From a virus (taxonomy: Duplodnaviria > Heunggongvirae > Uroviricota > Caudoviricetes): 34,039 nucleotides of DNA. The notes under the pieces are model-generated. The model saw nothing but the letters and a program-made list of their open reading frames with translations, did no database searches and was not told the DNA's origin. Of the stretch, positions 1 through 29,953 are shown in pieces (position 1 is the first letter of the stretch; every line of letters starts with the position of its first letter). Both the position numbers and the translations under genes were made by a program. The stretch lies in the IMG/VR virus record IMGVR_UViG_2617270939_000002; one strand, given 5' to 3'.

Positions 1-333
1 TCAAAACTGCGCCAATGCCGCCTCAAGAGATATCGCAGCATCAGTGCTGTTGATAAAGTGCGTCACCCGCCTCATAACCTCAGCCTCTTCAGCTGCATCA
101 CCTTCGATCGCTTCGCCGTCATCCGTGATTAACGCTTTCCCCCTAAGCTTCGCAAACTGCGTCCGACCTCCGGACAGAATCAACAGCGCATCACCCTGCT
201 GTGGGCGCGTGACCGGGACGATGATCGCATAACCCGCCGACGTCTCGAGGATGCGACTGTCGGGAGTCATGCAGACACTGGCTGGCGTAACCCGCTGCTC
301 TATATAGTCGGTAGATGGTGAAGGAAAGCCCAT
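1..333 (-). CDS. Hypothetical phage protein, 5' part only (start ATG at 333, continues past window start)
   Basis: Open frame to position 1; ATG at 331-333 preceded by GAGGG Shine-Dalgarno; no family recognised. Confidence 0.35.
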   Translation of the reverse strand: MGFPSPSTDYIEQRVTPASVCMTPDSRILETSAGYAIIVPVTRPQQGDALLILSGGRTQFAKLRGKALITDDGEAIEGDAAEEAEVMRRVTHFINSTDAAISLEAALAQF

Positions 334-376
334 GTTTACGCCCTCTCTTGAATGCTGGATAAAAACACAGTATAAA

Positions 377-396
377 TACTGTATACCCATCCAGTA
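377..396 (+). promoter_or_regulatory. LexA-box-like (SOS box) operator upstream of DinI-like gene
   Basis: TACTGTATACCCATCCAGTA fits CTGT-N8-(A/C)CAG with the CCAG right half as I recall it from E. coli dinI; lies 16 nt upstream of the ATG and just before an AAGGAG RBS. Confidence 0.45.
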
Positions 397-411
397 AAGG
401 AGCAATGAGCA

Positions 412-654
412 ATGTTCGTGGAACTCGTTTATGACAAAAGGAATTTTGATGGTCTGCCCGGTGCAAAAGATATCATTCTGGGCGAGTTGACCAGGAGGGT
501 TCACCGGATCTTCCCGGATGCTGATGTCCGGGTTAAACCGATGATGACACTGCCGGCGATCAACACTGATGCCAGCAAGCATGAGAAAGAGCAGATAAGC
601 CGTACTGTTCAGGAAATGTTTGAAGAGGCTGATATGTGGCTGATTTCAGATTAA
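412..654 (+). CDS. DinI-like DNA-damage-inducible protein
   Basis: 80 aa; translation MFVELVYDK...FPDADVRVKPMMTL...EQISRTVQEMFEEADMWLISD resembles DinI family; RBS AAGGAG. Confidence 0.8.
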   Translation: MFVELVYDKRNFDGLPGAKDIILGELTRRVHRIFPDADVRVKPMMTLPAINTDASKHEKEQISRTVQEMFEEADMWLISD

Positions 655-788
655 ACGCCTTGAACCGTCATATTGCTTAAGTACAATCCGCCGTGACTGG
701 CAATCATTCAATACTCAAACTATCGAACGTTCGTCAGTCGGCCGCAATCATGCTCCTGCATACGGCGTGGTTGCGGCAACCATCATTT

Positions 789-2426
789 TTACTCCTGAGC
801 ATCCTGCTGATTTTGCTGACGCTTATATTCAGCTTTTTCGAACGCTTCACGTGTCTCTTCTTTCTTCTGGTTCCAGATACTGTCTTCAGACATTTCCACA
901 CGCACAGACACAAAAGAATCTGCCGGAATATCGATAGGATAACCGTTCTTGGTGGTTTCAGTGAAGGTGCCGTCATCATTTCTCACGCCAATTAGATTAC
1001 GCGCAAACTCAGGAGCGTCAGGGTGGGTGCGGTGATACGTCTTCACCAGCACAGAACCATCTGGGTTAACTTCATAATCCAGCCAAATGCGCGCCTGTTT
1101 ATTTTTATCCAGAGGGATTTCAAACCCGCCATCAATACCACCCCAGGCAGCGTCAGCATTAAGCCCGTTACAGCCAGATATAAGATAATTGCCCGCAGAA
1201 ATTCGGCTAACCTTACAGCCCTCGGATTCATCATTCATTTCAGCAGTGCCGTCAGCATAAATTTTCACCACTGGTGATGCGCGCTTAATAAAGCCATTGC
1301 TGTCAACGGTTGTATTGATGTCATCCCATAAGGTTCGGGCTGTCTTAATACCCTCACTCCCGCCGCCAAGTATCCTGACCGGAGATTCTGCATTAAAAGG
1401 AAGCGAGAGGATGGCTAAGGTGTCAACGGTTTGCAAAAACAACGACGGAGCGTAATTATATATACCCCAAGTTCCGGGAATATTTTTTTCACTCCGGAAG
1501 GGAACGAGTCCATATTCGCGTAAAGAATTCGCCAGATCCGTGACATTATTTATATTATTTACGCGAATTACACCATTTGGGCGACCAATTCCAAATCCAC
1601 CTACCCCCATGACATCTCCAGCATCCAGACCGACATTTTGGGTTGCGGCACTACCTAAACCTAATTTTGTTCGGGCGCCCGATGCTGTATTTGCTCCGGT
1701 TCCGCCGTCTGCGACAGTAACCGCACCGTTGCTCCCTTTCTGTGCCAGTTTACCGATGCCAGGGATGGTTACGGTGACGGTGATCGCGTTGCCGCTAACG
1801 GTGACCGTTGCTTTTGCCCCGTCTGAGGTTGCCACGCGGAACGAGGTATCTGAGGCGCTGGCAGGGTTAACCGTCACATTGAGCGTTGTGGTTGCGCCGA
1901 CGGCCACGCTTGCCGTGGCTTTGTCGAGAGTAACGCCGGTCACGGGGATATTCGGGGTACCGCTTTCTTCTGCCAGCTCCGGCTTGCCGGTATTGGTGAT
2001 TTTCGCTGTACGGGTAATGACCTCTTTTGCCGGAATGGCTTTACCCAGGCTGCTGCACCAGCCGCGGAAAACGTCGACGGTACCGTTCGGGTATTTGATT
2101 TTGTAATAGCGTACTGAGCCATCAATAAACCATGCGACCAGGTCTTTTTGCCCTTCTTCGCCCGGCTTCCAGGCGAGGGTAAACGAGGTATCGCCAGCAG
2201 ATTTTGCCCCCTGGGCCGTCGCGTTCCAGTCGGCATCCTCGTCGTCGAGGTAAGTGTCGTCATACGATTCGGCGGTCATTTCGCCCGGCGTCAGCTCTTT
2301 GATTTTCGCCAGGCGGTTCCAGTCGATATCAGAGAGTGGGTTAGCGAAAGCGTTGCCCGTTCCGGTGTAAAGCCAGAGCGTCGTACCGGCGCCTTTTACA
2401 GGAGCAAGTGGATTTGGTGTTGGCAT
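789..2426 (-). CDS. Phage major tail tube protein (lambda gpV-like) with Ig-like (Big_2) domain and a roughly 300 aa fibre-like C-terminal extension
   Basis: N-terminus [22 protein letters not shown]...VDVFRGW matches lambda V; C-terminal [18 protein letters not shown] motif typical of tail-fibre shafts. Confidence 0.8.
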
Positions 2427-2433
2427 GTTTTCC

Positions 2434-2832
2434 TCACATTTCGTAAGTGATTGAATATTTCATATCGGCGGAGGGCCACAGCCCCATCGCATCATCGCGC
2501 TGGTAATCGAAGCCTTGTGGAACCATGAGCGTTAACAGTGAATCGAGGCCGGGAACATCAGCGAGGGCCGGATAGATATGGCTTTCCATCCATTCATCCA
2601 GTTCGGAATCTGGTACCTGCGAGGACAGGAAGACCTCGATATGTAGCGTTGCCGCCCACATATCGGCATCAAGTTCTTCGCCGGTATACTCCGCATCGGT
2701 CAGATAGACCGCGACGGCAGGAAAATCCTCCTCCTCAATGACAGCCGGGCGCCCGTCAAAAAACATGACGTCGATCCCGATGGCCTCTTCAAGCACATCA
2801 ATAATTTTCTGGCGAATGAGAGTGTGTTTCAT
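2434..2832 (-). CDS. Phage minor tail protein U (lambda gpU-like)
   Basis: 132 aa; [16 protein letters not shown]...FFDGRPAV...[17 protein letters not shown]...IEVFL matches lambda gpU along its length. Confidence 0.9.
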
Positions 2833-2848
2833 CGTGTCAGATGCAACC

Positions 2849-3268
2849 TCAGTTGTTGCCTGAGGGCATATCCATATCCAGAAGAATGCCGTCTACACCC
2901 GGATCGCTGATTGCCTGCTGGAGGCGGGCGATGATGCCGTTGTACCCCGTCATCCCCGAATACGGCTGGAGTGAGCGGGTTTTACTGACCAGCGTCCCGG
3001 AAACAGGCAGCACCGCGATACCATCAGTAACCTGGTAGCTTCGCGCTGGTTTTGGGCCCATGTCCTCATCATCACCAAAGAGAGCCAGCGGTTCAGCCAT
3101 CTGCTCTGCACCTAGCGTCACGCCCGACACGGTGTCGGTCAGACGGGTGATACCTAACTGACCAGCGAGAGCACAAAAGAAAACCCGCGCATAGGCGGGT
3201 TCAAGTAAAAGCGGCTCATTGAAGGCCATACTGGCAATGTGCGGGAGATTACGCAGCTCTGGCGTCAT
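2849..3268 (-). pseudogene. Truncated S49-family prohead protease (lambda gpC N-terminal about 140 aa only)
   Basis: MTPELRNLPHIASMAFNEPLLLEPAYARVFFCALAGQLGI...YSGMTGYNGIIARLQQAISDPGVDGILLDMD matches gpC N-terminus; ORF stops long before expected length and abuts gpU. Confidence 0.75.
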
Positions 3269-3971
3269 CGGTCCCCTCCTCATTCGATTTTTTCAGTCCA
3301 GACTCAAAGGCCGAAGCCGCCCACGCTGGCGGTTTAAGTCCCGCTGCGCGACGCTCCATCGTTTCGCGAACCTGCTGGGCAAAGATTTCCTGATAATCTT
3401 CCCCCCGTTTGGCGCATTCCTTCTCATAGGTGCTCAGCCCAGCCTCAATGAGCATGACAGCCTCCTGCACCTCCTTCAGACCGTCAATGGCCATTCTCCC
3501 GGAGCCGATCCAGTCTGCATTTCCCCAGGCGCTTCTCGCCTCCTGAAAACTGAATCGGGCTTTAGACGGTAGTGTCACCACCCGGCGAACAATGGCCTCT
3601 TCCAGCCAGCATAAAAACATCTGACAGGCCTGGCGGGAGGCAACAAATTTGCGGCGCCCCATAAAGTACGCCCAGGACTCGTTAGCACTGGCGCGGGCGG
3701 TGGAATAACTCATCTGCGAATAGTTGCGAGAGAGTTGCTCATACGACACACCCAGCCCTGCAGCAATGTAGCGCACCTCCTTCCGTAATTTCTCATTCTC
3801 AATCGCCGCGTCGCGTGCGGAATACCATTCGATAGCCGCGGAAGATTCATAGAGGACCTCATTACCTTTTCCACCGCCACGTGCTACAGGCATTCCCTGA
3901 TCCTGCCAGTTCTGAATGGTTCGCACGCTGACCCCAAATATTTCAGAAAGACGCTTTTTGTTGACCTCCAT
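3249..3971 (-). pseudogene. In-frame fusion of terminase small subunit Nu1 N-terminus (about 66 aa) to portal protein gpB C-terminal region (deletion of terminase large subunit, W and most of B)
   Basis: MEVNKKRLSEIFGVSVRTIQNWQDQGMPVARGGGKGNEVLY is Nu1-like; downstream NYSQMSYSTARASANESWAYFMGRRKFVASRQ... is portal-like. Confidence 0.75.
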
Positions 3972-4148
3972 AGCTCACTCCATACACAAAAACAGAGAAA
4001 GGAAACGCCCTCTGGCTATTTAGCCGTTTTTAAGGCTTATCATTTCCTTTCTTTTCAGGGGGTGTTTACAGTTAAAACAATGAATTAGCGAGAAGAAGAA
4101 CGGAAACGGCAAATGCCTGAAAATTTTCATAAATAGCGAGAATCTGCG

Positions 4149-4160
4149 AGGTCGCCGCCC
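4149..4160 (-). other. Lambda-type cosN cohesive-end sequence (GGGCGGCGACCT on minus strand) with adjacent cosB-like sequence
   Basis: Reverse complement of 4149-4160 is GGGCGGCGACCT followed by TCGC...TCGCTATTTATGAAAATTTTC, about 180 bp upstream of Nu1 start as in lambda. Confidence 0.7.
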
Positions 4161-4218
4161 CGTAACAAGGCGGATCGCCGGAAAGGACCCGCAAACGATA
4201 ATAATTATCAATTGCATA

Positions 4219-4947
4219 CTATCGACGGCACTGCTGCCAGATAACACCACCGGGGAAACATTCCATCATGATGGCCGTGCGGACATAGGAAGCCAGTTCA
4301 TCCATCGCTTTCTTGTCTGCTGCCATTTGCTTTGTGACATCCAGCGCCGCACATTCAGCAGCGTTTTTCAGCGCGTTTTCGATCAACGTTTCAATGTTGG
4401 TATCAACACCAGGTTTAACTTTGAACTTATCGGCACTGACGGTTACCTTGTTCTGCGCTGGCTCATCACGCTGGATACCAAGGCTGATGTTGTAGATATT
4501 GGTCACCGGCTGAGGTGTTTCGATTGCCGCTGCGTGGATAGCACCATTTGCGATAGCGGCGTCCTTGATGAATGACACTCCATTGCGAATAAGTTCGAAG
4601 GAGACGGTGTCACGAATGCGCTGGTCCAGCTCGTCGATTGCCTTTTGTGCAGCAGAGGTATCAATCTCAACGCCAAGCGTCATCGAAGCGCAATATTGCT
4701 GCTCACCAAAACGCGTATTGACCAGGTGTTCAACGGCAAATTTCTGCCCTTCTGATGTCAGAAAGGTAAAGTGATTTTCTTTCTGGTATTCAGTTGCTGT
4801 GTGTCTGGTTTCAGCAAAACCAAGCTCGCGCAATTCGGCTGTGCCAGATTTAGAAGGCAGATCACCAGACAGCAACGCGCCACGGAAAAACAGCGCATAA
4901 AGCACTTCATTAGCAGCGCCAGATAGCGTAATGATTTTGTTACTCAT
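4219..4947 (-). CDS. Hypothetical phage protein (242 aa) between moron region and cos
   Basis: ATG at 4947 with AAGGA RBS; long ORF; no family recognised. Confidence 0.6.
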   Translation of the reverse strand: MSNKIITLSGAANEVLYALFFRGALLSGDLPSKSGTAELRELGFAETRHTATEYQKENHFTFLTSEGQKFAVEHLVNTRFGEQQYCASMTLGVEIDTSAAQKAIDELDQRIRDTVSFELIRNGVSFIKDAAIANGAIHAAAIETPQPVTNIYNISLGIQRDEPAQNKVTVSADKFKVKPGVDTNIETLIENALKNAAECAALDVTKQMAADKKAMDELASYVRTAIMMECFPGGVIWQQCRR

Positions 4948-5332
4948 GGAATATTTCCTTTTAGGCGTGAGCCTGTCGCACGGCAATGCCGCCCGAGAGG
5001 TAAACGCAACCTAACGGCATCACCCAGGCTCACTACTGAAAGACTCTCTTTGATGTGCGCGTGCGATGCGCGTAGAAGACTGATTTATCAACCTGTCTTT
5101 ATATCAGGATTCATTACCTGACTATTTGTGGGTAAAGTTCGTAGTGCGCTGATCGTGCAAAATGATTTTAGTTGGGAACAGTTCGCAACTCTGTCCCATA
5201 AAAATCAGCATATTCCCATCTATCCCATATCCAGCGCATTGACCATCGGGATACTGAAGGGAGATTCCATCATCTCTTAGAAAGATCACCATCTCTTTTG
5301 TTTCAATTTGCATATAGCTACCTGGAGGATTT

Positions 5333-5947
5333 ATGAATGCAAGGATTTTCATGGACTATTACCATGAGATTGATTTTCCATCTTTATTCGCGAGAGCAGT
5401 GGAAAGCGATGACGATGTGGGTACTACATTGCGCATTCACCTACTTTGTGAGCGCATGGTCGAAGCATGGATATGCGCATGCTGTGACTGCCAAGATCTC
5501 TTTGGAAGAGATAAAAACAAACTTTTAATCGAATGTAATACTAAAATATCCATGGCGGGAAACCTGGGAATCCCCCCGGAACTTATGAAATCACTTAAAA
5601 CCATCAACTCAATGCGTAATGACCTTGCACACAATCCATCAATACAAAGCATTGCTGATTCAAGGATCCAGAGCCTGAAGGATACTCTGACTGAATACTT
5701 TAAACAGCATCCAACGGAACCCAGCATGGAAGAATCAAAACTGGGTATTTTTAACGCCGAGAATCAATTAACCGAAGAAGTTTCCTTAGATAGTGACAGT
5801 TCAAAAAACAGACTTAAGTTAATCTTGCTGTTCAGCAAGTTAATGCAGGCGTTAATGCAATTAGTTGCAGCTAATCATAATGGGCGCTGGGATAACCAAT
5901 TTAGCCAATTCGTTTACCATGTGACCATGAACGCAACAAAGAGATAA
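5333..5947 (+). CDS. HEPN-like (Rx4H motif) protein, candidate abortive-infection/toxin RNase moron; alternative start at 5351
   Basis: Motif SMRNDLAHN (R-x4-H) in a predicted helical protein; opposite strand to surrounding phage genes; AT-rich; followed by hairpin terminators. Confidence 0.6.
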   Translation: MNARIFMDYYHEIDFPSLFARAVESDDDVGTTLRIHLLCERMVEAWICACCDCQDLFGRDKNKLLIECNTKISMAGNLGIPPELMKSLKTINSMRNDLAHNPSIQSIADSRIQSLKDTLTEYFKQHPTEPSMEESKLGIFNAENQLTEEVSLDSDSSKNRLKLILLFSKLMQALMQLVAANHNGRWDNQFSQFVYHVTMNATKR

Positions 5948-5983
5948 ATCCAAGCCCGTTTTGTACGGGCTGTTGCATTATCA

Positions 5984-6014
5984 CAGGCACTCAGTGAATG
6001 CCTGCTGTAATGCC
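5984..6014. repeat. 31-bp direct repeat copy 1 (contains hairpin CAGGCA-N9-TGCCTG)
   Basis: caggcactcagtgaatgcctgctgtaatgcc; second copy at 6371-6401 with one mismatch. Confidence 0.6.
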
Positions 6015-6030
6015 CGTCGTGATGACCATT

Positions 6031-6092
6031 AAAAAAGCCACTCGAAAGTGGCCTTTGTGATGGCAATAAAAAACCGCCCGTAGGCGGTTATA
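6031..6092. terminator. Two tandem hairpins flanked by A/T runs (bidirectional rho-independent terminators)
   Basis: gccact-cgaa-agtggc (6037-6052) and ccgcc-cgta-ggcgg (6074-6087), each with A-run upstream and T-rich downstream. Confidence 0.5.
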
Positions 6093-6108
6093 TTCAGCAG
6101 GTCGCATG

Positions 6109-6273
6109 TTATCTGTGAATGACAAACAGCGATTTACATTTAGGGCAAAGTAACGCCTGTTGTTGGCGTACTTTCGTGGTCGAGTGTGTGGATTTATGTC
6201 CGCATATCGGGCACATGACAGTCGTATTGGCTGCAAGCCCAACACGCTGCATTGCATAATCGAAAAATGACAT
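6109..6273 (-). CDS. Small zinc-ribbon protein (54 aa, two CxxC pairs)
   Basis: Own translation MSFFDYAMQRVGLAANTTVMCPICGHKSTHSTTKVRQQQALLCPKCKSLFVIHR; ATG at 6273; terminators immediately downstream; below the 60 aa ORF-track cutoff. Confidence 0.45.
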   Translation of the reverse strand: MSFFDYAMQRVGLAANTTVMCPICGHKSTHSTTKVRQQQALLCPKCKSLFVIHR

Positions 6274-6370
6274 GGTGGTTAACCTTTCAATGAATGGGGC
6301 TTATTATACCATGCATAGCTCAATTATTAATCAATCATCATCGCATGCTTGATGCCATTTAACTTTGTCG

Positions 6371-6401
6371 CAGGCACTCAGTGAATGTCTGCTGTAATGC
6401 C
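6371..6401. repeat. 31-bp direct repeat copy 2
   Basis: caggcactcagtgaatgtctgctgtaatgcc. Confidence 0.6.
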
Positions 6402-6714
6402 TGCTCAGCCAAGTTGAAGCACACCGTGTTCTTTTGAATCAGAGAATGCAACAAACCCAGTGTATTCGGGGATAGTGTTCCGTCATCAGCATCAAATGCT
6501 GAAATGGTTGCGTGAAGAATCAAAAATGCTCCAAATCCCGCGCCGCTGCTGCCCCTCGATGGTCAGAATCGTCAAGGAGGACCCGTTAAAAGGTAAGCAG
6601 AAAATCTGTGGTTAGAAGTGAAGGCTTTGACAACGTTCTAAATTTTATGACAGAAATAAAAAAGCATTACCTTTCAAGATAATGCTTTTTCACTCGAACT
6701 GAGTCTTATAACAA

Positions 6715-6888
6715 TTAGATTAATGTGATTTTAATATCATAGCTTTCAAGCCCAGTCATTTTTTCACGAGCATTAAACTGGATATCGGAAACTTCTTTTC
6801 CTGTCTTTTTTTTGAGTTCAATAATTTTTTTTGTGATGAATTCAGAAATATCCGCTTCAGTTTTTCTTTTTAAATCTTCGACGTTCAT
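6715..6888 (-). CDS. GnsA/GnsB-family small protein (57 aa)
   Basis: Own translation MNVEDLKRKTEADISEFITKKIIELKKKTGKEVSDIQFNAREKMTGLESYDIKITLI closely resembles E. coli GnsA/GnsB; RBS GAGAGGT. Confidence 0.8.
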   Translation of the reverse strand: MNVEDLKRKTEADISEFITKKIIELKKKTGKEVSDIQFNAREKMTGLESYDIKITLI

Positions 6889-7092
6889 TGTTTACCTCTC
6901 TTGATCTCTAACGTATCAACGCCAGGCATGTTACATTCCCCGTAGAGCACTTGTATAAGCGCTGATATGTTTAAAAGATAGAATAGAAAGACTCAATTAT
7001 CAATAGTTTGCAGTACAATCTTCATGCAAAAGAGCTCGCGACCACACAAACCACTGTACTAAAATCCGGGTCGGTCACGAAACAACCAGATC

Positions 7093-7323
7093 TCATTTCA
7101 AAAGCTTCGAGGCTGCCTCGAGGATCTCTTCTGAACTGACATCACGATCAGAGGCTACATAAACTATTTTATGGTCTCCTGTCAGAGATGGAAATCCCGC
7201 TGACATCACGGGTAGGTGTGCTTTTTCCCCATTGGGAAACTCACGCATTATCGTAGTAATACCTTTCATTACGGTTACAACAACTGCTGGTTCTGCATTA
7301 AAAAAAACGATGACTTTTTTCAT
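7093..7323 (-). CDS. Hypothetical small protein (76 aa)
   Basis: ORF with MKK start; weak RBS; no family recognised. Confidence 0.4.
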   Translation of the reverse strand: MKKVIVFFNAEPAVVVTVMKGITTIMREFPNGEKAHLPVMSAGFPSLTGDHKIVYVASDRDVSSEEILEAASKLLK

Positions 7324-7396
7324 AATTTTACCGTGATGTCTCTTACAGAGATTGTCGGTTCAGCATACAAAAAAGGCTCCATAAGGAGCCTGAAAT

Positions 7397-7612
7397 TTAT
7401 TTTCTGAATTCTAACGAAGACTGACCAGAACGAATGTACAGTGCAATATTATCAAATGTAATCATTGTTGATTTGCAAAAAATACATTTTGCTCCGAAAG
7501 GATTTTTTTCAGTAACATCAAAGTTTGACGTTCGGTACTGAGATCCGTGGCAACACGGACATCTGAAGTGAATATTATTAGTAATAACAGTTACCTTATA
7601 CAGCCACGACAT
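7397..7612 (-). CDS. Hypothetical zinc-ribbon-like small protein (71 aa; CPCC...CIFC)
   Basis: ATG at 7612; two Cys pairs about 22 residues apart; overlaps 3' end of csp gene by 17 nt; weak RBS. Confidence 0.3.
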
Positions 7613-7808
7613 TAACTGCCGTGGGGCCTTTAGGTCCCTGTTCAACACTAAATTCAACTTCCTGATTCTCATTCAACGTCTTGAAATCATTACTCTGGAT
7701 AGCAGAGAAGTGAACAAACACATCTTTACTACCATCTTTTGGAGTGATAAAACCAAAACCTTTTTCAGGATTAAACCATTTAACTAAACCAGTCATTTTA
7801 TTAGACAT
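7596..7808 (-). CDS. Cold-shock protein, CspA family (CspB-like)
   Basis: [53 protein letters not shown]... ; long AT-rich upstream leader typical of csp genes. Confidence 0.9.
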
Positions 7809-8240
7809 AAACATTACCTTTATTGAGTAAGCCCTTGGGCAGAATGGTCCGAAAAAAAATTATCAGAGAGAAAAGCTAACAAGGAAATCTCAACAGGAAC
7901 AAGGAATAAAATTATTACAGCGACTGCTTCAGATAAATTCGTTACAAACCAGACATTCATTAACGCATGATTAACCAGACATAGCAAGGTTTAGTTTTGT
8001 AAGTAAATCTCAGTGGGTTTTGATCTTAAAAATTAATTTAAATAGCTTAAATCGAAAATTATGTCATGCTGCGTAAGACCTTTATCTATCACCCTAAGTT
8101 GTCAGGGATTTTGACTCAAGGAAGAGTCGTATTTCCTTCATAGTAAAAATTCACAAATTTATCCACGAAAACCGTCAACATCTTAATTTATAGAGCTATT
8201 ATTTTTCCTCTACGGTTCATTGTTAGTATTTTTACGGACT

Positions 8241-8345
8241 CATAAATCCGCTCACATGTCATTCCTGCTCGGTAGTTTTCATCAGCGCGTTCAGCATGGT
8301 ATCGAGCTTCTTCTGCCAGGCTTCCTGGCATGTCTACGAGCATTG
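8241..8345 (-). pseudogene. Orphan 3' fragment duplicated from the gene at 9196..9669 (about 105 bp, about 80 percent identical to 9237..9341)
   Basis: Direct sequence comparison of the two stretches (ctcaca(t/c)gtcattcctgc...atcgagcttcttctgc...). Confidence 0.55.
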
Positions 8346-8380
8346 TGGTGTCATGGCGGATGGAAAGTTATGTTGATTCG

Positions 8381-8584
8381 TTAGTTATCGAGCTGTAGAA
8401 CGCTATGCTCTAGCGACTCGGAATAGGCAATCAGCCCGGTGTACTCAGGGATAACCTCGCCATCATCCGCTTCGAACTCAGGGATTGTTCCGGTAGTGAT
8501 GGTATATTGTGGCTGGCCATCTTCTTTTGCGAAGGCAGCCAGGTCTTCAATCTGCTTAGCTGTAAGAACTACTGTAATGCTCAT
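8381..8584 (-). CDS. Hypothetical acidic small protein (67 aa)
   Basis: ORF only; SD very close to ATG. Confidence 0.35.
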   Translation of the reverse strand: MSITVVLTAKQIEDLAAFAKEDGQPQYTITTGTIPEFEADDGEVIPEYTGLIAYSESLEHSVLQLDN

Positions 8585-8968
8585 TCCTCAGTTGTTAAAA
8601 AGCCCCGCTATTGCGAGGCTTGATTGATTATGGCTAACGACTACATCGTAACGGTTATAAAAGAAGCTATTAGCCAACATGTGGTGTATGGTTGTTAACC
8701 GCCCACCAGGACAATCAACATGTCGATACTCAAAGATATCAAGATGCGTACTTTACGCCATGTGAAAAGTACTTGTCCTCATTGCTCCCGCCAGTCAAAG
8801 CACAGTCTGTCGAGAATAAAAAACAATATAACGTTAATTTGCCCCTTCTGTGGAAACATCTATCTTCCATCGGAAAGCAAACCAATAAAGTAACTGATTG
8901 ACTACCAAATAAAACTCATACTCTCAGAATGTGGCAAAGCAGACATAACCTTTTATTGTTGTTCTCAT

Positions 8969-9199
8969 TTAAGAGAATGTAACACCCAGAGTGGAGAGGT
9001 TTTTTTTCTTCTCCACAATACGGCGATCAAGTTCAGCCACTGCATGCGGGCGTATGGCATCAAGAAAGGCGTTATCCTGATAGGTAGACTGGATTGTCAC
9101 ACCAAGTCCGGCACCACTTTCCAGTATGCTTTTCTGAAGTTGTAGTTCTTTTATATCGTTATTGAGGTAATACGCTTCACTTAGGTTTTCTGCGTTCAT
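8969..9199 (-). CDS. Hypothetical phage protein (76 aa)
   Basis: ATGA start/stop overlap with upstream gene suggests translational coupling. Confidence 0.5.
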
Positions 9200-9669
9200 C
9201 TTCTAACCCTGTTGTTGTTTGACTGCCTCACTGAGTCGTAAATGCGCTCACACGTCATTCCTGCCCGGTAGCTTTCGTCAGATCGCTCAGCATAATATCG
9301 AGCTTCTTCTGCAAGGCGTCCGAGCATGTCGGCGAGCACTGCGGCGTCGGCTCCGGCTGTTTTGCTTCTGACGGCAGTGGCAAGATCTGCGGTGTGCTTT
9401 GCGGCGTCCAGGCGAGTGGCAAGCTTTGTTGCTTCGGTACGCAGCTGGTTAACAGTGGCAGACAGGCCAGCAGCAGTGGCAGCGGATTTACCGACAATAA
9501 TTGCCCAGTCACTCAGGCTTAACCCTGCAATTCTGTCGGCCAACATCCAGGACACCTCTTTTGCTGTTTTAGCTGTTTCGGCATATGCCTTCGCTGATAC
9601 ACCGCAGCCGGTCAGCGTGGTTCCTGTTCCATATGAAAGTCTGCTGTAAATGGTGCTCATTCTGGTCAT
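9196..9669 (-). CDS. Hypothetical phage protein (157 aa)
   Basis: ATG at 9669 preceded by GGAGGTGAGG; Ala/Thr-rich helical protein. Confidence 0.6.
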
Positions 9670-9912
9670 AGCCTCACCTCCGATTATTCGGATGGCGCTG
9701 TGTGTTTGAAAAGGGTCAGGCTTCACGGGCTGGATTTATCAACAAAGCACGTAGCGGATGATTCCCGTGAGCCTGAAATAGAAAAGGCCACGCAAATGCG
9801 CAGCCTGTAACCAGAAATCAATATTGTCTTTACATCAATTTTTCTTAAGGTTAAATTCTTCTGACAAGTTGATGAAAGACAACTTGAATATTAGCTATTT
9901 GTTCTCTGTTAT

Positions 9913-13932: not shown

Positions 13933-14030
13933 ACGTCTATTGTAGTCTAGTGAGAATTGCTGAGAACTACGAGTTATGGCACCCTGAATGGGACCCACGA
14001 AGATGGGTCCTAAAATCGAGGGTCCCAAAC

Positions 14031-15260
14031 ATGGCCAAAATCGCTAAGAAGCTCACTGACACTGAAATCAAAAGCACCAAACCTGCCGAAAAAGAGGTTA
14101 ACCTTTTTGACGGCGATGGTTTGCTGTTGCGAATCGCTCCCCTGGCGAAGGGAGGGAAGAAAAATTGGTATTTCAGATATGCAGTGCCTGTGACCAAAAA
14201 GCGAACTAAGGTGAGCTTAGGAACCTATCCTCACCTTACACTTGCGAAGGCACGAGCTTTACGTGATGAATACTTGTCGTTGCTTACAAATGGTATAGAC
14301 CCCCAAGTTCATAACAACCAAAAAGCCAATGCACTGAAAGATGCCACGGAACATACATTTCAAGCAGTAGCCAAGAAGTGGCTTGATGAGAAAGTCAAAA
14401 CGTCAGGCATCTCCCAAGATCATGCTAACGACATCTGGCGAAGCCTAGAGAGAAATATCTTTTCCACATTGGGTGATACCCCAATTAAGGAGATTCGCCC
14501 TAAAATGCTTAAACAGCATTTAGAACCCATAGAAAAACGAGGTGTCCTTGAAACACTTCGCCGCATCATATCCCGCCTGAATGAAATTTTCCGCTATGCA
14601 GCAACAGAAGAACTCATAGAATTCAACCCGGCAGACAACCTGGGGCAACGGTTCAGCAAGCCAAAAAAACAGAATATGCCAGCATTACCCCCTTCCGAAC
14701 TCCCTCGCTTCTTGGTTGCTCTAAACAATGCTTCTATCCGTTTGGAAACAAGGCTACTGATTGAGTGGCAACTTCTCACATGGGTTCGCCCAGGTGAAGC
14801 TGTTCGCACAAGATGGTCAGATATTGATATTGAAACTGGCATGTGGAACATCCCGGCGGAGTTTATGAAAATGAAGAAGCCTCACAAAGTTCCACTGAGC
14901 AAAGAAGCTTTGCGAGTTTTGGATTTAATGAAAGTCATCAGCGGGCATAGAGAGTGGGTGTTCCCCAGTATCAAAGCTCCACTCAATCACATGCATGAAC
15001 AAACAGCTAATGCGGCCATAATCCGTATGGGTTTCGGAGGTGAGCTTGTAGCTCACGGTATGCGATCCATTGCTAGAACGGCTGCTGAGGAGTCTGGCAA
15101 GTTTAGGACTGATGTCTTAGAAGCCGCCCTTGCCCACTCGAAGAAAGATGAAATAATTGCAGCCTACAATCGTGCAGAGTATCTCACTGAACGGGTGGTT
15201 CTCATGCAATGGTGGAGTGACTATGTTTCGTCTCAAAAATGCAAAGTTATTGCCGCATAA
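14031..15260 (+). CDS. Tyrosine integrase, P4 family (IntA-like), 409 aa
   Basis: MAKIAKKLTDTEIKSTKPAEKEVNLFDGDGLLL...WYFRY... N-terminus and C-terminal HGMRS...LAHS...Y catalytic region; adjacent to ssrA-type att. Confidence 0.9.
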   Translation: MAKIAKKLTDTEIKSTKPAEKEVNLFDGDGLLLRIAPLAKGGKKNWYFRYAVPVTKKRTKVSLGTYPHLTLAKARALRDEYLSLLTNGIDPQVHNNQKANALKDATEHTFQAVAKKWLDEKVKTSGISQDHANDIWRSLERNIFSTLGDTPIKEIRPKMLKQHLEPIEKRGVLETLRRIISRLNEIFRYAATEELIEFNPADNLGQRFSKPKKQNMPALPPSELPRFLVALNNASIRLETRLLIEWQLLTWVRPGEAVRTRWSDIDIETGMWNIPAEFMKMKKPHKVPLSKEALRVLDLMKVISGHREWVFPSIKAPLNHMHEQTANAAIIRMGFGGELVAHGMRSIARTAAEESGKFRTDVLEAALAHSKKDEIIAAYNRAEYLTERVVLMQWWSDYVSSQKCKVIAA

Positions 15261-15542: not shown

Positions 15543-17099
15543 ATGGCTAGCGAAAATGACAAAAATCATAGAGTTAGGGTCGCGCAGTACTTGAGGATGT
15601 CTACCGACCATCAGCAATATTCTTTACATAATCAGTCCGAATATATCAAAGATTATGCTGAAAAGAACAATATGGAAATCGCTTATACCTACGATGATGC
15701 AGGTAAGAGCGGAGTCAGTATCGTAGGCAGGCATTCTTTGCAGCAGTTACTTAGCGATGTAGAACAAAAGAAAATAGATATACAGGCTGTATTATTTTAT
15801 GATGTGAGCCGTTTTGGTCGTTTTCAAAATAGTGATGAAGCGGCATATTATTCCTTTCTATTTGAGAGAAATGGTGTAGATCTTATATATTGTTCCGAAC
15901 CTATACCCACTAAAGATTTCCCTTTAGAGTCCTCTGTTATACTGAATATAAAAAGATCTAGTGCTGCATATCACAGCAGGAATTTATCTGAAAAGGTATT
16001 TATAGGGCAAGTAAATTTAATAAAGCTTGGTTATCATCAAGGCGGTATGGCTGGTTATGGGCTGAGACGTCTTTTAGTAGACGAAAATGGCATAGCTAAA
16101 GAAATATTGAGTTTCCGCAAAAGAAAGAGTATTCAAACAGATAGGGTAATATTAATTCCGGGACCAAAAAATGAAATAAAAATTGTAAATAGAATATATG
16201 ATCTCTTTATAGATAATAACGTCCCAGAATTCATTATTGCTGAGAGATTAAATGAACAGAACATACCTGCAGAAAATGGAACATTATGGACTCGTGCAAA
16301 AATACATCAAATTTTGACAAATGAAAAATATATTGGAAACAACATATATAACAAAACCTCATCTAAATTAAAAAGTAGGCTTGTAAAAAACCCCAAACAT
16401 GAATGGGTTAGATGTGACAAGGCATATAAACCTATTATTTCAAAGAAAAAATACAATAAAGCTCAAGAAATAATTCAGCTCCGATCCATTCATTTGACTA
16501 ATGAAGATCTATTAGAAAAACTAAAACAAAAATTAGAATCTAATGGAAAACTATCAGGCTTTATCATTGATGAAGATGATACAGGCCCTTCATCTTCTGT
16601 TTATAGAACCCGATTTGGTGGTCTTTTAAGAGCATATACTTTGATTGGTTATAAGCCAGAACATGATTACAGCTATCTCAAAATAAATGAAGCACTAAGA
16701 TCATTTCACTCAGAGATAATTGAGGATTTTAAGGGTGAAATTTTAAAAAGTAACTGTCATATAGACGAGTATAAATATGCCCCAATGCTTTACATCAATG
16801 ATGAGTTTTTAATTTCCGTCCTTGTTACTAAATGCATACATATGAAATCAGGTAAACTTAGATGGAAAGTCCGGTTTGATAACTCACAGAAAGCAGACAT
16901 AACAATTGTTATACGAATGAATTCACAAAATATTTCACCTCTTGATTTTTATATCATACCAAAGATTGAAAACGAATATAATAAAATGTGCATGACGGAA
17001 ACAAACAACATTCGATTAGATCTCTATAGATTTGATAATCTTGATAAACTTCTACAAATTATTACTCGCATGAAAGTGAGGGAACTATATGCTGCCTGA
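15543..17099 (+). CDS. Large serine recombinase (resolvase/invertase catalytic domain plus recombinase and zinc-ribbon domains)
   Basis: VAQYLRMSTDHQ catalytic serine motif near N-terminus; 518 aa; AT-rich. Confidence 0.85.
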   Translation: MASENDKNHRVRVAQYLRMSTDHQQYSLHNQSEYIKDYAEKNNMEIAYTYDDAGKSGVSIVGRHSLQQLLSDVEQKKIDIQAVLFYDVSRFGRFQNSDEAAYYSFLFERNGVDLIYCSEPIPTKDFPLESSVILNIKRSSAAYHSRNLSEKVFIGQVNLIKLGYHQGGMAGYGLRRLLVDENGIAKEILSFRKRKSIQTDRVILIPGPKNEIKIVNRIYDLFIDNNVPEFIIAERLNEQNIPAENGTLWTRAKIHQILTNEKYIGNNIYNKTSSKLKSRLVKNPKHEWVRCDKAYKPIISKKKYNKAQEIIQLRSIHLTNEDLLEKLKQKLESNGKLSGFIIDEDDTGPSSSVYRTRFGGLLRAYTLIGYKPEHDYSYLKINEALRSFHSEIIEDFKGEILKSNCHIDEYKYAPMLYINDEFLISVLVTKCIHMKSGKLRWKVRFDNSQKADITIVIRMNSQNISPLDFYIIPKIENEYNKMCMTETNNIRLDLYRFDNLDKLLQIITRMKVRELYAA

Positions 17100-17985
17100 A
17101 AAAAATGAATTCCCAATAATTCAAATTGAGATTGCAAAAATAAAATTTCTTAACCCACGAACAAGAAATAAGTTAGTGCATGAAGAAATAAAGGAAAGCA
17201 TAAAAAAAAGAGGATTAAGCAAGCCTATAAGCGTAAGAGCTATTGATGAAGGCGATTTCAAATATGCTTTAATTTGTGGTCAAGGGAGAATAGAGGCTCT
17301 CGTTGCATTAGGTGAAACTATTATTCCAGCAATTATAAGAGATGTATCAGAAGAAGATGCTTACGTTATGAGTTTAGTTGAAAACATTGCAAGGAGAAGA
17401 CCACGTTCTAATGAGTTATTACAGGTGATTAAAGACATGAAAATCAGAGGACTTTCAGACTCCGAAATAAGTGAGATTACTGGATATTCATCGAACTGGG
17501 TGAGCAGTATTAATATGCTACTTGATAAGGGAGAGCATAAACTTCTCTCAGCAGTCGAACGGGGTAATTTGCCTCTGTATCTCGCAGTGCAATTTGCAAG
17601 ATGTGAAACTGAGGAAGCACAAGATATTCTTACCGAAGCATATGATAAAAAATTAATAAAAAGTCGGGACATTATAAAGATAAAACACATTCTAAATCAA
17701 AGAACAGTTGGGAATAAAGGTGCAAAAGCAGCCGGATTTTATTATCACAAACCATCAAAAAGGATGACTGCAGAGGAGTTGATTGAGCTTTATGAAAATA
17801 GTATCGCTGAACATAAATCTGTTTATAACAACTCAAAATTCATAAAAACCAACCTACTAATAGTAAATGAGATTTTTAACATCATAATGATGAATAAAAG
17901 CTTTCAACATATACTTGAACAAGAGAATCTTTCAGAACTACCATCTCAGATATTAACCCCAATAAACAAAGAGGTATTAAAATGA
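17089..17985 (+). CDS. ParB-like N-terminal domain protein with HTH (paralog 1)
   Basis: ISVRAIDEGDFKYALICGQGRIEALVALGETIIPAIIRDVSEEDAYVMSLVENIARR matches ParB/Spo0J N-domain pattern; 11-nt overlap with recombinase. Confidence 0.7.
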   Translation: MLPEKNEFPIIQIEIAKIKFLNPRTRNKLVHEEIKESIKKRGLSKPISVRAIDEGDFKYALICGQGRIEALVALGETIIPAIIRDVSEEDAYVMSLVENIARRRPRSNELLQVIKDMKIRGLSDSEISEITGYSSNWVSSINMLLDKGEHKLLSAVERGNLPLYLAVQFARCETEEAQDILTEAYDKKLIKSRDIIKIKHILNQRTVGNKGAKAAGFYYHKPSKRMTAEELIELYENSIAEHKSVYNNSKFIKTNLLIVNEIFNIIMMNKSFQHILEQENLSELPSQILTPINKEVLK

Positions 17986-19532: not shown

Positions 19533-19552
19533 CTTCGCTTGTACAAGCGAAG
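19533..19552. repeat. Perfect 9-bp inverted repeat around a central TA dinucleotide (CTTCGCTTG-TA-CAAGCGAAG)
   Basis: Read directly; the 2-nt spacer argues for a DNA-level protein-binding or crossover site rather than an RNA hairpin. Confidence 0.6.
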
Positions 19553-19587
19553 ATCCTATTGTTCTTGAATGAATAATGCCAATTATA

Positions 19588-25610: not shown

Positions 25611-26156
25611 TTGAAGACCAGAAATCGTTGCCTAAGCGATATTCTTAAAGCGTCGGCGGAACGTTCAGACAAACCCACTGGAGCTGTGCTACAGCATCTT
25701 ATTGGAGCCAAACTCCAATTGCGCTTTCCCAATGTTAAAATCGGCAGTGACAGAGCCAATGCAGCTGACTTACACACTGACCGTGAGGGTGATTTTCAGG
25801 TGGGTACTACTGCATTCCACGTGACCACCGCACCTATGGAGAAATTGATTTCGCGCTGTGTCGAAAACAAACGTGCAGGCTACAGGCCGGTCATCCTAAC
25901 TCTTGAAAGCAAAGTCATTGCAGCACGCCAGATGGCTGATAACGTTGGTATGTCTGAACAGATAGCCGTCCAGGCAGCCGAAACTTTCATCGGTAACAAT
26001 ATTGAAGAGATTGCTATCTATGACGGCGATAAAATCCGTGAGGGTCTCGCAAGACTGATACGTACGTACAACGTCCGTATCAATACTATCGAGATAGATA
26101 AATCCCTTATGATTGATGAGCCTCGTTGGATCGTTAACTTACTGACCGACTCCTGA
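25611..26156 (+). CDS. Hypothetical protein, possibly 5'-truncated gene remnant (TTG start in ORF track), in a segment of E. coli-like GC content
   Basis: 181-aa ORF without a convincing start or RBS; composition differs from flanking AT-rich DNA. Confidence 0.4.
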   Translation: MKTRNRCLSDILKASAERSDKPTGAVLQHLIGAKLQLRFPNVKIGSDRANAADLHTDREGDFQVGTTAFHVTTAPMEKLISRCVENKRAGYRPVILTLESKVIAARQMADNVGMSEQIAVQAAETFIGNNIEEIAIYDGDKIREGLARLIRTYNVRINTIEIDKSLMIDEPRWIVNLLTDS

Positions 26157-27156: not shown

Positions 27157-28110
27157 ATGAGTAACTATACAGAAGATAATTTATTTGACAGCATATCTAA
27201 AAAAGACGTCCAGAATTGCATTGCTGCAGGCATTGACATTAACACACTAAATGAACACGGTGAAAACGCCCTTTTCGGTTGCGACAGTATCGGGGCTTTA
27301 AAAGCTATGATTGAAGCAGGCATAGCGCTGAACCATACAGATTGTTATGGTAATAATGCCCTGTTTAGCAGAAAAAGCCCACGAGCACTGGGGCTATTGA
27401 TAAAATCAGGTATTAACGTTCATCACAAAAATAATAAAGGCCTGTCCTGTCTTCACTGGCAGCACTACGACATAGATTGTGCGGAACTCCTCATTAACGC
27501 GGGCGTTGATATCCACAGCACAGATAATGAAGGTCAAACGCTTCTTTACAACCTCCACGATCATGACGTCTTTGATTACTGGGTAAATAAAGGGTGTGAC
27601 ATAAACCACAGAGATTATAATGGCAAAGCGGTGCTGGACCTTCCGACTGACGACGAGTGGTGGATATATGATTTCAGTATTAATGCCCTCAAACGCCATG
27701 TTGACAGAATAGACAGCACACCAGTTTTATTTAAACATATTTCAACTGAGGCGTTGCCTCTGATTGCTTTGCTTCATGAAAAAGGGCGTAATATCCTTAT
27801 CGCTGAACACTGTACCTTCGCATTATATGTCAAAAACATGAAGTCCTTCTTTACCTCACTGAAAAAATATACCGATATCAGTCATGTTCAGTTTTATAAT
27901 TGTTATCATGACAGACATATTGGTGTCTATACTGGTATTGAGACAGTAAAATGGTTTATTCGAAATGGTATCAGAGTGGACGACGATATACTGAGACAGC
28001 GTGCTGACTCTGATAAAATTTTTGACTATATAAGCGGAAGAGAGAAAAAAGATTTTCTCAAAATCATGAAACCAGAAATCACCCATGCGCCGAAGAGAAA
28101 AAGAATGTGA
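27157..28110 (+). CDS. Ankyrin-repeat protein (N-terminal ANK repeats, unknown C-terminal domain)
   Basis: Repeated ...G(I/V)(D/N)(I/V)N..(D/N)..G..AL(F/Y/H)... units (NEHGENALF, DCYGNNALF, NNKGLSCLHW, DNEGQTLLY, DYNGKAVLDL). Confidence 0.75.
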   Translation: MSNYTEDNLFDSISKKDVQNCIAAGIDINTLNEHGENALFGCDSIGALKAMIEAGIALNHTDCYGNNALFSRKSPRALGLLIKSGINVHHKNNKGLSCLHWQHYDIDCAELLINAGVDIHSTDNEGQTLLYNLHDHDVFDYWVNKGCDINHRDYNGKAVLDLPTDDEWWIYDFSINALKRHVDRIDSTPVLFKHISTEALPLIALLHEKGRNILIAEHCTFALYVKNMKSFFTSLKKYTDISHVQFYNCYHDRHIGVYTGIETVKWFIRNGIRVDDDILRQRADSDKIFDYISGREKKDFLKIMKPEITHAPKRKRM

Positions 28111-28307: not shown

Positions 28308-28697
28308 ATGAATAATGACATAACAAGACTATCAAGGCGTGGAAAATTCCATACTGACAAACTTCCGCCTGATGAAAGACGAAGCCACTGCGTCAGTGTC
28401 AGATTAAATGAAGAAGAATTAACTATTCTCGACAGTAAAAGAGGCCAGTATAAAAAAGGGGAATGGTTGAGAATGGCTTCCCTGAACAAACTCCCACCGG
28501 TTCTGCCCGAAATAAATCGCGAAGCATGGATTAAACTCGGCAGCCTTTCCCAGGATTTAAATTACCTACTGAATCATCTTGACAAGAAAAGTCCTGACAG
28601 CGAACTAACCCGTACAGAACTCTTTGCCCTGCGCAGACAAATCAAAACGCTTCGGGATCACCTTATTCCCTCAACATTTCTGGAGCAAGACCGATGA
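28308..28697 (+). CDS. MobC-like relaxosome accessory protein (ribbon-helix-helix)
   Basis: RRSHCVSVRLNEEELTILDSKRGQYKKGEWLR pattern; ATGA coupling to relaxase. Confidence 0.65.
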   Translation: MNNDITRLSRRGKFHTDKLPPDERRSHCVSVRLNEEELTILDSKRGQYKKGEWLRMASLNKLPPVLPEINREAWIKLGSLSQDLNYLLNHLDKKSPDSELTRTELFALRRQIKTLRDHLIPSTFLEQDR

Positions 28698-29953
28698 AAG
28701 GCATGCAGAAAATAAAAAGGGGTAAACAGTTTGCAGGAGTGGTGCTTTACAGCCTCAAATCCGGTCCACACCACAACGTTATGCCTTATGTCATCGGTGG
28801 TAATATGATCGGAAGTTCGGTGGCTGAGCTTATCAGTGAGTTTGAAATTTCTAAACAATTGCGTCCCGATGTCGCCAAACCCGTCTGGCATAATTCACTT
28901 CGCCTGCCAAAGGGAGAAACACTGTCAGCCAGACAGTGGGCGGCATTCGCCGACGATTATATGACCCGGATGGGGTTCACTGAAACGCACCTTCGCTGTT
29001 ATATCCTTCACGATGATACCGACGGGCAGCATATCCATATCATTGCAAGTCGCATTAACATGGCCGGTGGAAAGCTGTACCTGGGGAAAAATGAAAATCT
29101 CATCAGCACCCGCATTATCAGCGAACTGGAGCGAATACACGGACTCACTGAAACAACACCTGCAACCAGCAGTCGCCCTCAGGCTAAAAGAAAACCCTCA
29201 CGCAATGAGCTGATGATGGCAGAACGAACAGCAGTTCCCTGCCCTAAGTCTCAGTTGCAGACCCTGATTGATAATGTCTTAACGCATCGTCCCGATTTAC
29301 TGACTTTTATCGACATGCTGGAACAGAAAGGTGTGACCTGTAAACCCAATATCGCGTCGACCGGAAAAATGAATGGATTTTCATTTCAGTACCAGGGTAT
29401 TGCCTTTAAAGCGTCTCAGCTTGGAAAAAAGTATGGCTGGTCTTCTCTGCAAACGCAGATTGATTTTACACCAGAGCACCTGGCCTTACTGAAAAAAGAG
29501 CAACAACAGACTGTACCAGTGCCAGTGCCAGTGCCAGTGCCAGTGCCAGTGCCAGTGCCAGTGCCAGTGCCAGTGCCAGTGCCAGTGCCAGTGCCATCAT
29601 GCGAGCCTGAAGAACAGGTTGCAAACCGGGAAACGATTCTGGAGAAAATCCTTCAGCTTGAAGAAAAAATTCGTCTGGAAAGACAACAGGAAACAGTGGG
29701 TGTCATTCAACTCAGGAGCAAACTGCACAATACAGCTCGTCAGATACCCCGCCAGCGTCGTCTGCATTCGTGGTTTGTATTGCTCGGCCATATTGTGGCA
29801 CTTCTCAGGCGCAGGGGCATGTCTCTGTTACATGCCACTGCACATCCTTTCCACCAAATCCTGCACCTGCATCTTCTGACACCCTGTCATTCCATGACAA
29901 CAAATCCCATTAAAGAACAATTAGTTAAAAATAACCCCCATCCTGCACCATAA
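28694..29953 (+). CDS. Mobilisation relaxase (MobA/VirD2-like) containing a (VP)14 linker
   Basis: HLRCYILHDDTDGQHIHIIASRINMAGGKLY histidine-triad region; follows MobC-like gene. Confidence 0.75.
   Translation: MKGMQKIKRGKQFAGVVLYSLKSGPHHNVMPYVIGGNMIGSSVAELISEFEISKQLRPDVAKPVWHNSLRLPKGETLSARQWAAFADDYMTRMGFTETHLRCYILHDDTDGQHIHIIASRINMAGGKLYLGKNENLISTRIISELERIHGLTETTPATSSRPQAKRKPSRNELMMAERTAVPCPKSQLQTLIDNVLTHRPDLLTFIDMLEQKGVTCKPNIASTGKMNGFSFQYQGIAFKASQLGKKYGWSSLQTQIDFTPEHLALLKKEQQQTVPVPVPVPVPVPVPVPVPVPVPVPVPVPSCEPEEQVANRETILEKILQLEEKIRLERQQETVGVIQLRSKLHNTARQIPRQRRLHSWFVLLGHIVALLRRRGMSLLHATAHPFHQILHLHLLTPCHSMTTNPIKEQLVKNNPHPAP
29514..29597 (+). repeat. Hexanucleotide microsatellite (GTACCA + 13 x GTGCCA) encoding (Val-Pro)14 inside relaxase
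   Basis: Read directly from sequence. Confidence 0.95.

Follow-up and report, generated by a model that had tools for sequence, protein, structure and literature searches.

We analysed a stretch of 34,039 nucleotides from a tailed-phage record (Caudoviricetes; IMG/VR record IMGVR_UViG_2617270939_000002), referred to below as the window, and focused on the open reading frame (ORF) at positions 5333 to 5947. A first-pass annotation made from the sequence alone had described this ORF as an AT-rich, opposite-strand moron with an R-x4-H motif of the HEPN type and had proposed a single-gene, abortive infection-like defence protein or toxin without an obvious partner. The 204-residue plus-strand frame is present exactly at these positions amid minus-strand phage genes, all credible neighbours being encoded on the minus strand, and the description as an opposite-strand moron holds. 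Its GC content is 40.5%, compared with 52.5% for window positions 1-4000, a remnant of structural genes, and 49% for the gp49-like neighbour; the moron region to its right is as AT-rich as the gene itself. The motif, SMRNDLAHN, was likewise recovered and spans R95 to H100. The protein contains two Rx4-6H matches, starting at R4 and R95, whereas about 0.5 would be expected by chance according to our own estimate. Judged from the sequence, a lone match of this type is uninformative, and it is the conservation of R95...H100 that gives the motif its significance.

Comparison with known phages identified the locus. The encoded protein shares 99.5% amino acid identity with PHI80_63 of phage phi80, segment 5023-6014 is 99.4% identical to phi80, and window positions 4149-6014 show 97.6% DNA identity with the right end of the phi80 genome. 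A prophage of Escherichia coli Nissle 1917 shares segment 5000-6015 at 100% identity. In the phi80 entry (GenBank JX871397), the ORF is PHI80_63, the small divergent ORF beside it is PHI80_64, and rha (PHI80_62), PHI80_65 and PHI80_66 form the flanks. The locus tags PHI80_62-PHI80_66 correspond to orf62-orf66 of He et al. (2024, Nat Commun 15:7539; PMC11364771), in whose work orf63, transcribed against the Q operon, is taiEcA, a defence gene of phi80 that is named after tail assembly inhibition, and orf64 is atiEcA. The mass computed for TaiEcA plus 3xFLAG is 26.08 kDa, and the published value is 26.1 kDa (PMC11364771). In the Yersinia-like loci L029-L032, the Tai and Ati proteins are 48% and 40-42% identical to those studied here, compared with 47% and 40% published for TaiYerA and AtiYerA (PMC11364771). 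In the window, taiEcA lies on the plus strand between lysis and moron genes on one side and cos with a Nu1-like gene on the other, all of the latter genes being on the minus strand. Among 5426 complete E. coli genomes, 110 carry the module, Nissle 1917 included, 90 of them at an identity of at least 99%. We are highly confident that the ORF is an intact taiEcA allele which, together with its antidote gene atiEcA, has been retained in a heavily deleted phi80-like prophage. The locus is not a discovery, as it represents the published TaiEcA/AtiEcA defence and counter-defence pair of phi80. What the present analysis adds is the homology between Tai and HepS, which links two recent, separately described systems.

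Table 1. Features of the tai/ati locus and its surroundings (window coordinates).
Feature	Position	Strand	Remarks
taiEcA allele, predicted HepS-like solo HEPN defence protein, 204 aa	5333..5947	+	ATG start; phi80 PHI80_63 / AFV29200.1 / YP_007947985.1; E. coli Nissle WP_000993911.1
HEPN Rx4H motif codons, R95-N96-D97-L98-A99-H100	5615..5632	+	equivalent to HepS R100-N101-...-H105
Spacer between divergent taiEcA and atiEcA start codons, 19 bp	5314..5332		contains the taiEcA Shine-Dalgarno sequence
taiEcA Shine-Dalgarno sequence	5324-5328		GGAGG
7-bp GC-rich hairpin, weak candidate terminator	5953-5971		6 nt past the taiEcA stop; right end of the phi80-homologous module
atiEcA allele, 63-aa counter-defence protein, late operon	5122..5313	-	phi80 PHI80_64, annotated 'putative Fur-regulated protein'
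Chimeric 240-aa ORF with Nu1-like N-terminus	3249..3971	-	cos/terminase start fused to portal/protease sequence
gp49-like gene, 242-aa product	4219..4947	-	PHI80_66 homologue, 'similar to N15 gp59'
YnfU-, GnsAB-, YdfK-, YmcF- and Csp-like morons	6109-7814	-	
Rz-like spanin lysis gene	near 9196-9726	-	

According to He et al., TaiEcA is produced constitutively in the phi80 lysogen, independently of the late genes (PMC11364771). The rival lambdoid phages HK106, HK544 and HK578 still inject and replicate their DNA in its presence but yield particles without tails, and mutants that escape are altered in the C-terminal portion of J, the central tail fibre (PMC11364771). Protection is seen at the population level and only at low multiplicity of infection (MOI), while at high MOI the infected cells of Tai+ cultures still lyse and release capsids (PMC11364771). 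The defence role postulated in the first-pass annotation has thus been shown experimentally for the nearly identical phi80 protein. The second gene, atiEcA, is a counter-defence gene of the Q-dependent late operon, which runs antisense through taiEcA (PMC11364771); in the window, too, the late transcript would be antisense to the entire taiEcA gene. Phi80 makes AtiEcA because its own J would be a Tai target. When atiEcA is missing, the phage suffers from autoimmunity and acquires insertion sequences in taiEcA; ΔatiEcA lysogens are viable and only the lytic titre falls (PMC11364771). Single deletions of orf62, orf64, orf65 and orf66 reduced the titre for orf64 alone (PMC11364771). The authors further reported a Q-dependent reduction of TaiEcA, for which they proposed a noncontiguous-operon model, found binding of the cognate pair TaiSalB/AtiSalB in a two-hybrid assay, and assayed Tai proteins for defence from pBAD without Ati (PMC11364771).

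With atiEcA, whose start codon is located 19 bp upstream of taiEcA on the minus strand, the notion of a partnerless gene falls. The alternative of a toxin accompanied by an antitoxin fares no better, as AtiEcA is a late, Q-dependent counter-defence protein and neither a co-effector nor a classical antitoxin (PMC11364771). AtiEcA of the window is 98.7-100% identical to the phi80 and Nissle proteins, the lower value applying to phi80. In the phi80 annotation, the gene starts 13 codons earlier, at 5352, and overlaps taiEcA by 20 nt; all diverged Ati homologues start at the internal methionine (M14 of the long ORF). Across 15 distinct loci, in which Tai identity falls to as little as 30%, the start codons of tai and ati are separated by 18-25 bp, and substitutions in atiEcA follow the coding pattern 3>1>2 for codon positions. 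AlphaFold2 modelled AtiEcA as a four-stranded beta-meander with a mean predicted local distance difference test score (pLDDT) of 84, and neither the structure search nor comparison with Pfam and PDB sequences revealed a significant relative. Ati-like ORFs were found in 27 of 28 IMG/VR viral loci and in one Pantoea genome, and they also lie beside Tai homologues of only 36% (L035/L036) and 30% (L038/L039) identity; He et al. report five Ati versions, fewer than we found (PMC11364771). An Ati-like ORF was absent from loci L024 and L037, from remoter members of the family, which reside on a plasmid or elsewhere outside late operons (L042-L047), and at hepS in Gifsy-1. Judged by ORF content, an Ati-like partner goes with TaiEcA-clade proteins whose identity is as low as about 30%.

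The terminator hairpins ascribed to the gene stood up in part. A hairpin directly behind taiEcA is present (-12.5 kcal/mol, z=-3.0), but a clean U-tract is lacking, and a consensus terminator scan passed over it. A bidirectional hairpin at 6037-6052 looks more like a terminator but is situated beyond the phi80-homologous module, which ends at position 6014, 67 nt past the taiEcA stop.

The search against hidden Markov models recommended in the first-pass annotation proved nearly blind for this protein. TaiEcA had no match in Pfam or NCBIfam, reached only the CARF_HEPN model of PADLOC v2 (E=0.004) and fell into PHROG 5483, a family of unknown function. An AlphaFold2 model of TaiEcA, built on an alignment of 19 homologues (pLDDT 86.5, predicted template modelling score 0.83), features an all-alpha core, a beta-hairpin at residues 137-150 and a disordered tail at residues 189-204; these last 16 residues have pLDDT values below 50 and appear disordered, as they are in apo-HepS. 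The top four Foldseek matches of the model were all chains of HepS, the solo HEPN abortive-infection anticodon nuclease from the Salmonella prophage Gifsy-1 (PDB 9OIJ/9OIK; Sargen et al. 2026, Nature 652:201; PMC13043305), with a probability of 1.00 and template modelling scores of 0.50-0.57. Next in rank were the non-catalytic HEPN-like proteins MtlR/YggD. The structural correspondence with HepS covers the full length, including the region past the HEPN core, as expected for a member of the same family.

Sequence profiles led to the same protein. With TaiEcA as the single query, phmmer found nothing useful among PDB sequences, and HepS was reached only with a family profile. An exhaustive HMMER search collected 210 representative clusters of proteins of ~170-200 residues, and a profile of 100 homologues retrieved HepS from the PDB sequences with E=8.6e-16 (hmmsearch). 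The alignment of family and HepS by hhalign reached a probability of 97.85% (E=6.7e-13), and the pairwise BLASTP comparison of TaiEcA and HepS gave E=3e-5 over the motif region. For these comparisons, the HepS sequence was reassembled from three partial database proteins, and its residue numbering agrees with the published one (PMC13043305). BLASTP with HepS matched 148 of the collected proteins, among them the bridging protein P0161 (30% identity over 196 residues, E=9e-26); a fragment of HepS, searched by tblastn, had no match in the phage collection.

R95, N96, A99 and H100 are invariant in the 19 close homologues. Across the 100 homologues, with a mean column identity of 20%, the sole invariant columns are R95, N96 and H100, and almost every one of the 150 family representatives listed carries RNxxAH near residue 95. 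The polar N96 directly behind the Arg is typical of HEPN motifs. In the hmmsearch, hhalign and BLASTP alignments alike, R95, N96 and H100 pair with R100, N101 and H105 of HepS. Two positions of the HepS tetramer interface are also recognisable, F66 corresponding to the invariant F57 and L83 to the nearly invariant L78, while K78 aligns with S73 of TaiEcA. Further residues conserved among Tai proteins lie at the N-terminus (M1, F6, M7, Y9, I13, D14) and in the C-terminal tail (W186, N188, Q192). We conclude that TaiEcA and HepS belong to one continuous family and that TaiEcA, as modelled, is a HEPN protein in which the Rx4H motif is absolutely conserved across the family. The HEPN assignment of the first-pass annotation is thus supported by model, structural matches and motif.

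The biology of HepS offers a mechanistic template. HepS is made constitutively and is held as an inactive tetramer (PMC13043305). Its trigger is a 32-residue peptide from the central straight fibre of J (lambda J 902-933, key residue F924), the binding of which opens two HEPN active sites formed by R100/H105; tRNA-Thr/Ile/Ser are then cleaved (PMC13043305). Production of infectious particles is blocked with little effect on DNA replication, and the exchanges R100A/H105A abolish both defence and RNA cleavage (PMC13043305). The authors also suggested that J binding blocks J folding and trimerisation and thereby adds to defence, and they counted 393 homologues (PMC13043305). Gifsy-1 avoids self-targeting by means of a silent J variant with I in place of F924 (PMC13043305). 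The HepS paper makes no mention of Tai or phi80, the words HEPN, nuclease and tRNA do not occur in the text of the Tai paper (PMC11364771), and no publication in the paper library that we searched links Tai with HEPN or HepS.

The Tai phenotypes (escape mutations in J, normal replication, missing tails and protection at low MOI) parallel those of HepS. From this parallel and the homology of the proteins we infer that TaiEcA probably functions as a J-activated HEPN ribonuclease. Like HepS, it would rest as an inactive oligomer until newly made J binds and activates it; the active form would then cleave tRNA anticodon loops, and the tailless phenotype would stem from sequestration of J combined with translational shut-off late in infection. 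AtiEcA may be a protein inhibitor that binds TaiEcA and keeps it inactive during the lytic cycle of phi80 itself. The J protein of phi80 retains Phe at the position of lambda F924, unlike that of Gifsy-1, so that phi80 would need an inhibitor, consistent with the autoimmunity of the ΔatiEcA phage. For the wider claim that Tai systems and HepS form one family of tail-tip-sensing HEPN anticodon nucleases, in which tailless particles arise largely downstream of J-triggered tRNA cleavage and J sequestration, we lean only slightly towards acceptance.

A number of points count against a J-activated nuclease. No Tai protein has been reported to be a nuclease, to be toxic or to cleave tRNA, and the release of capsids by lysing Tai+ cultures at high MOI implies that translation is not shut off early. 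Sequence homology with HepS by hmmsearch and hhalign is limited to the N-terminal ~110 residues of TaiEcA. HepS K71 aligns with I66 and K78 with S73, and Y20, I107 and, from the N- and C-terminal strands that bind the trigger, S13/D15 and S202/T203 have no recognisable counterpart; since the trigger- and tRNA-contacting residues of HepS are not conserved, the trigger epitope and the RNA target of TaiEcA may differ. Upstream of taiEcA, neither a promoter scan nor inspection by eye found a sigma-70 consensus; as the divergent start codons are only 19 bp apart, the promoter must lie within or beyond atiEcA. The prophage is degraded, and expression of taiEcA in the present host is not assured. Finally, He et al. 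themselves explain their results by direct interference with J (PMC11364771). In that explanation, TaiEcA is a purely stoichiometric J binder which blocks tail-tip assembly, the HEPN scaffold being a platform and Rx4H not catalytic. Electron micrographs with tailless capsids and no free tails, normal phage DNA replication and cos-plasmid transfer and the lack of reported toxicity fit this explanation (PMC11364771), as do the suggestion of the HepS authors that J binding interferes with J folding and trimerisation (PMC13043305) and the position of non-catalytic MtlR/YggD as next-best structural matches. We nevertheless regard a pure J binder as rather unlikely, chiefly since R, N and H are absolutely conserved among 100 homologues with a mean column identity of 20%, which is hard to account for without a catalytic constraint. 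In HepS, moreover, exchange of the equivalent R and H abolishes defence and RNA cleavage (PMC13043305), and TaiEcA at the level present in a lysogen would need to titrate a late structural protein stoichiometrically.

Two further explanations were considered. If TaiEcA were an always-active ribonuclease encoded by a stand-alone or classical toxin-antitoxin moron, the neighbouring gene would be an antitoxin needed for host viability. Lysogens, however, contain TaiEcA, and expression of atiEcA is confined to the lytic cycle; ΔatiEcA lysogens are viable and Tai proteins have been expressed from pBAD without Ati; the two genes are divergent and not co-transcribed; and neither neighbour contains an MNT/nucleotidyltransferase or another Pfam domain. 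We find this explanation hardly credible. Alternatively, the taiEcA copy studied here could be an inert passenger of a decaying prophage, intact by chance, unexpressed and without phenotype, and the loss of the large terminase gene, part of the portal gene and many head and tail genes speaks for such decay. Against it stand the full length of both ORFs and their 100% identity with the Nissle 1917 copy, the recurrence of the module in 110 E. coli genomes, mostly at 99% identity or above, and the finding that taiEcA is expressed on its own in lysogens, independently of late genes (PMC11364771); an inert passenger appears improbable.

The deletions are evident from collinearity with phi80. Window positions 3774-4160 equal phi80 1-387, that is, cos and the start of the small terminase gene, and are joined directly to a match of phi80 3901-4811 (portal/protease), while positions 1834-2874 match phi80 8562-9602 (tail genes). 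The prophage has thus been reduced to a remnant by deletions, which removed the large terminase gene together with numerous genes for head and tail. Beyond the right boundary of the module, the minus strand is densely packed with small morons of E. coli prophages (6109-8900); they encode a YnfU-like zinc ribbon, a member of the GnsA/B family, a YdfK/YnaE-like protein, a YmcF-like protein that overlaps a CspA-family cold-shock protein, and ORFs known only from PHROGs.

Other assignments for the genes around taiEcA were considered and dismissed. AtiEcA as a mimic of the J trigger, suggested by the resemblance by eye of 'GNMLIFMGQ' to 'GNQIFMND' of lambda J, scored a probability of 0.44% in hhalign and had no match among Pfam or PDB sequences. 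The gp49-like gene (PHI80_66) is not a conserved partner, since phi80-like loci are the only ones in which it accompanies tai, and the titre drop for deletion of orf64 alone also speaks against this role (PMC11364771). Nor did the 'Fur-regulated' label of PHI80_64 find a basis at the gene, no Fur-box-like site above 12/19 being present within 4900-6100. Two overlapping 15/19 Fur-box matches, the best in the phi80-like part, are situated at 4191-4215, near cos and just downstream of the gp49-like stop codon, and may be the source of the label.

The PHI80_66 homologue, which belongs to the late operon and adjoins the tai/ati pair, contains a J-like segment. Its residues ~83-142 resemble the central straight fibre of J (BLASTP against phi80 J 1063-1129, E=2e-4, 33% identity; Pfam Phage_Tail_Tip, 23.1 bits versus a cut-off of 22). 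The corresponding segment of lambda J, 874-940, includes the trigger peptide of HepS. The equivalent of F924 is retained as Phe ('NGVSFIK' versus 'NGQTFIR' in phi80 J and 'GNQIFMN' in lambda), whereas the equivalent of Q922 is Val. Such a protein could serve as a decoy or anti-defence factor against heterologous Tai or HepS sensors; its restriction, as a companion of tai, to phi80-like loci and the confinement of the titre defect to the orf64 deletion weigh against the idea.

Genes of the Tai family also occupy other hotspots (L035; L044, 2191-2763; L043). One Tai/Ati pair (L035, 1968-2747) sits inside a tail-tip module, between the tail genes M (Phage_min_tail) and L (Phage_tail_L). A more distant Tai homologue is encoded on a Rep3/ParA plasmid, where it adjoins a resolvase gene, and another lies beside an AlpA-type regulator, which suggests a satellite-like element. 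In the E. coli K-12 cloning strains DH5alpha, DH10B, NEB 5-alpha/10-beta and HST04, which carry phi80 lacZ-deltaM15 remnants, window positions 3000-6015 are matched at 94% in two joined pieces. The match extends to the right boundary of the tai/ati module, and the features listed beneath it name neither gene. To judge from this match, these routine hosts probably carry taiEcA/atiEcA, and the pair might bias experiments with lambdoid phages in them.

Elsewhere in the window, a P4-type integrase gene (13950..15260) adjoins an island of low GC content (31-36%) at 15543-24931. This island encodes a serine recombinase, two ParB/RepB-like proteins, a UvrA-like ABC ATPase of 722 residues (PADLOC mad3, 2.8e-44) and two tandem ThiF/E1-like proteins (PADLOC E1-E2, ~1e-16 to 1e-18); the whole may be a cassette for defence or conflict carried by an integrative element. 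An ORF of 181 codons at 25611..26156 (+) matches only the C-terminal half, positions 156-329 of 331, of a PADLOC model for Type II restriction endonucleases (E=5e-102) and is probably a truncated restriction endonuclease gene. It is followed by genes for an ankyrin-repeat protein (27157..28110) and a MobA-type relaxase (28694..29953).

If Tai proteins are nucleases of the HepS type, the mechanism of Tai needs to be revisited. Model sets of defence finders, three of which (Pfam, NCBIfam and PADLOC v2) miss TaiEcA, could then place both systems in one family. AtiEcA would be the first known protein inhibitor of this class of sensor nucleases, and both a tool and a model for the way in which a phage shuts off a HEPN sensor-nuclease.

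Among known systems, the type VII toxin-antitoxin pair HEPN-MNT (HepT/MntA) differs in that no MNT nucleotidyltransferase gene lies beside taiEcA; TaiEcA is also larger, has an extra beta-hairpin and a C-terminal helix, and is not matched by the Pfam HepT-like model. Another prophage HEPN system, published in 2024 and compared here by its description in PMC13043305 only, resembles Tai in that a tail protein triggers a HEPN effector and autoimmunity of the carrier is avoided by regulation or an immunity factor; the HepS authors call it entirely different, with a non-specific ribonuclease and a different tail trigger. The closest match is TaiEcA/AtiEcA of phi80 itself, which shares the position between lysis region and cos/packaging genes, the divergent 'noncontiguous operon' layout and the downstream gene PHI80_66. 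The copy in the window differs by residing in a deleted, non-inducible phi80-like remnant and by the moron cluster to the right of the module, where phi80 has rha. HepS, in turn, is only ~14-21% identical to TaiEcA, with a C-terminal half that cannot be aligned by sequence. The hepS gene belongs to the early-right region, where it has the same orientation as its neighbours and no Ati-like companion; HepS is self-sufficient, whereas the TaiEcA clade has a conserved Ati-like partner. Self-immunity is achieved by a silent J variant in Gifsy-1 and, in phi80, would be conferred by the inhibitor AtiEcA. If Tai and HepS are one family of sensor nucleases, that family would comprise two routes of self-immunity, a changed J in Gifsy-1 and late production of an inhibitor in phages of the phi80 type.
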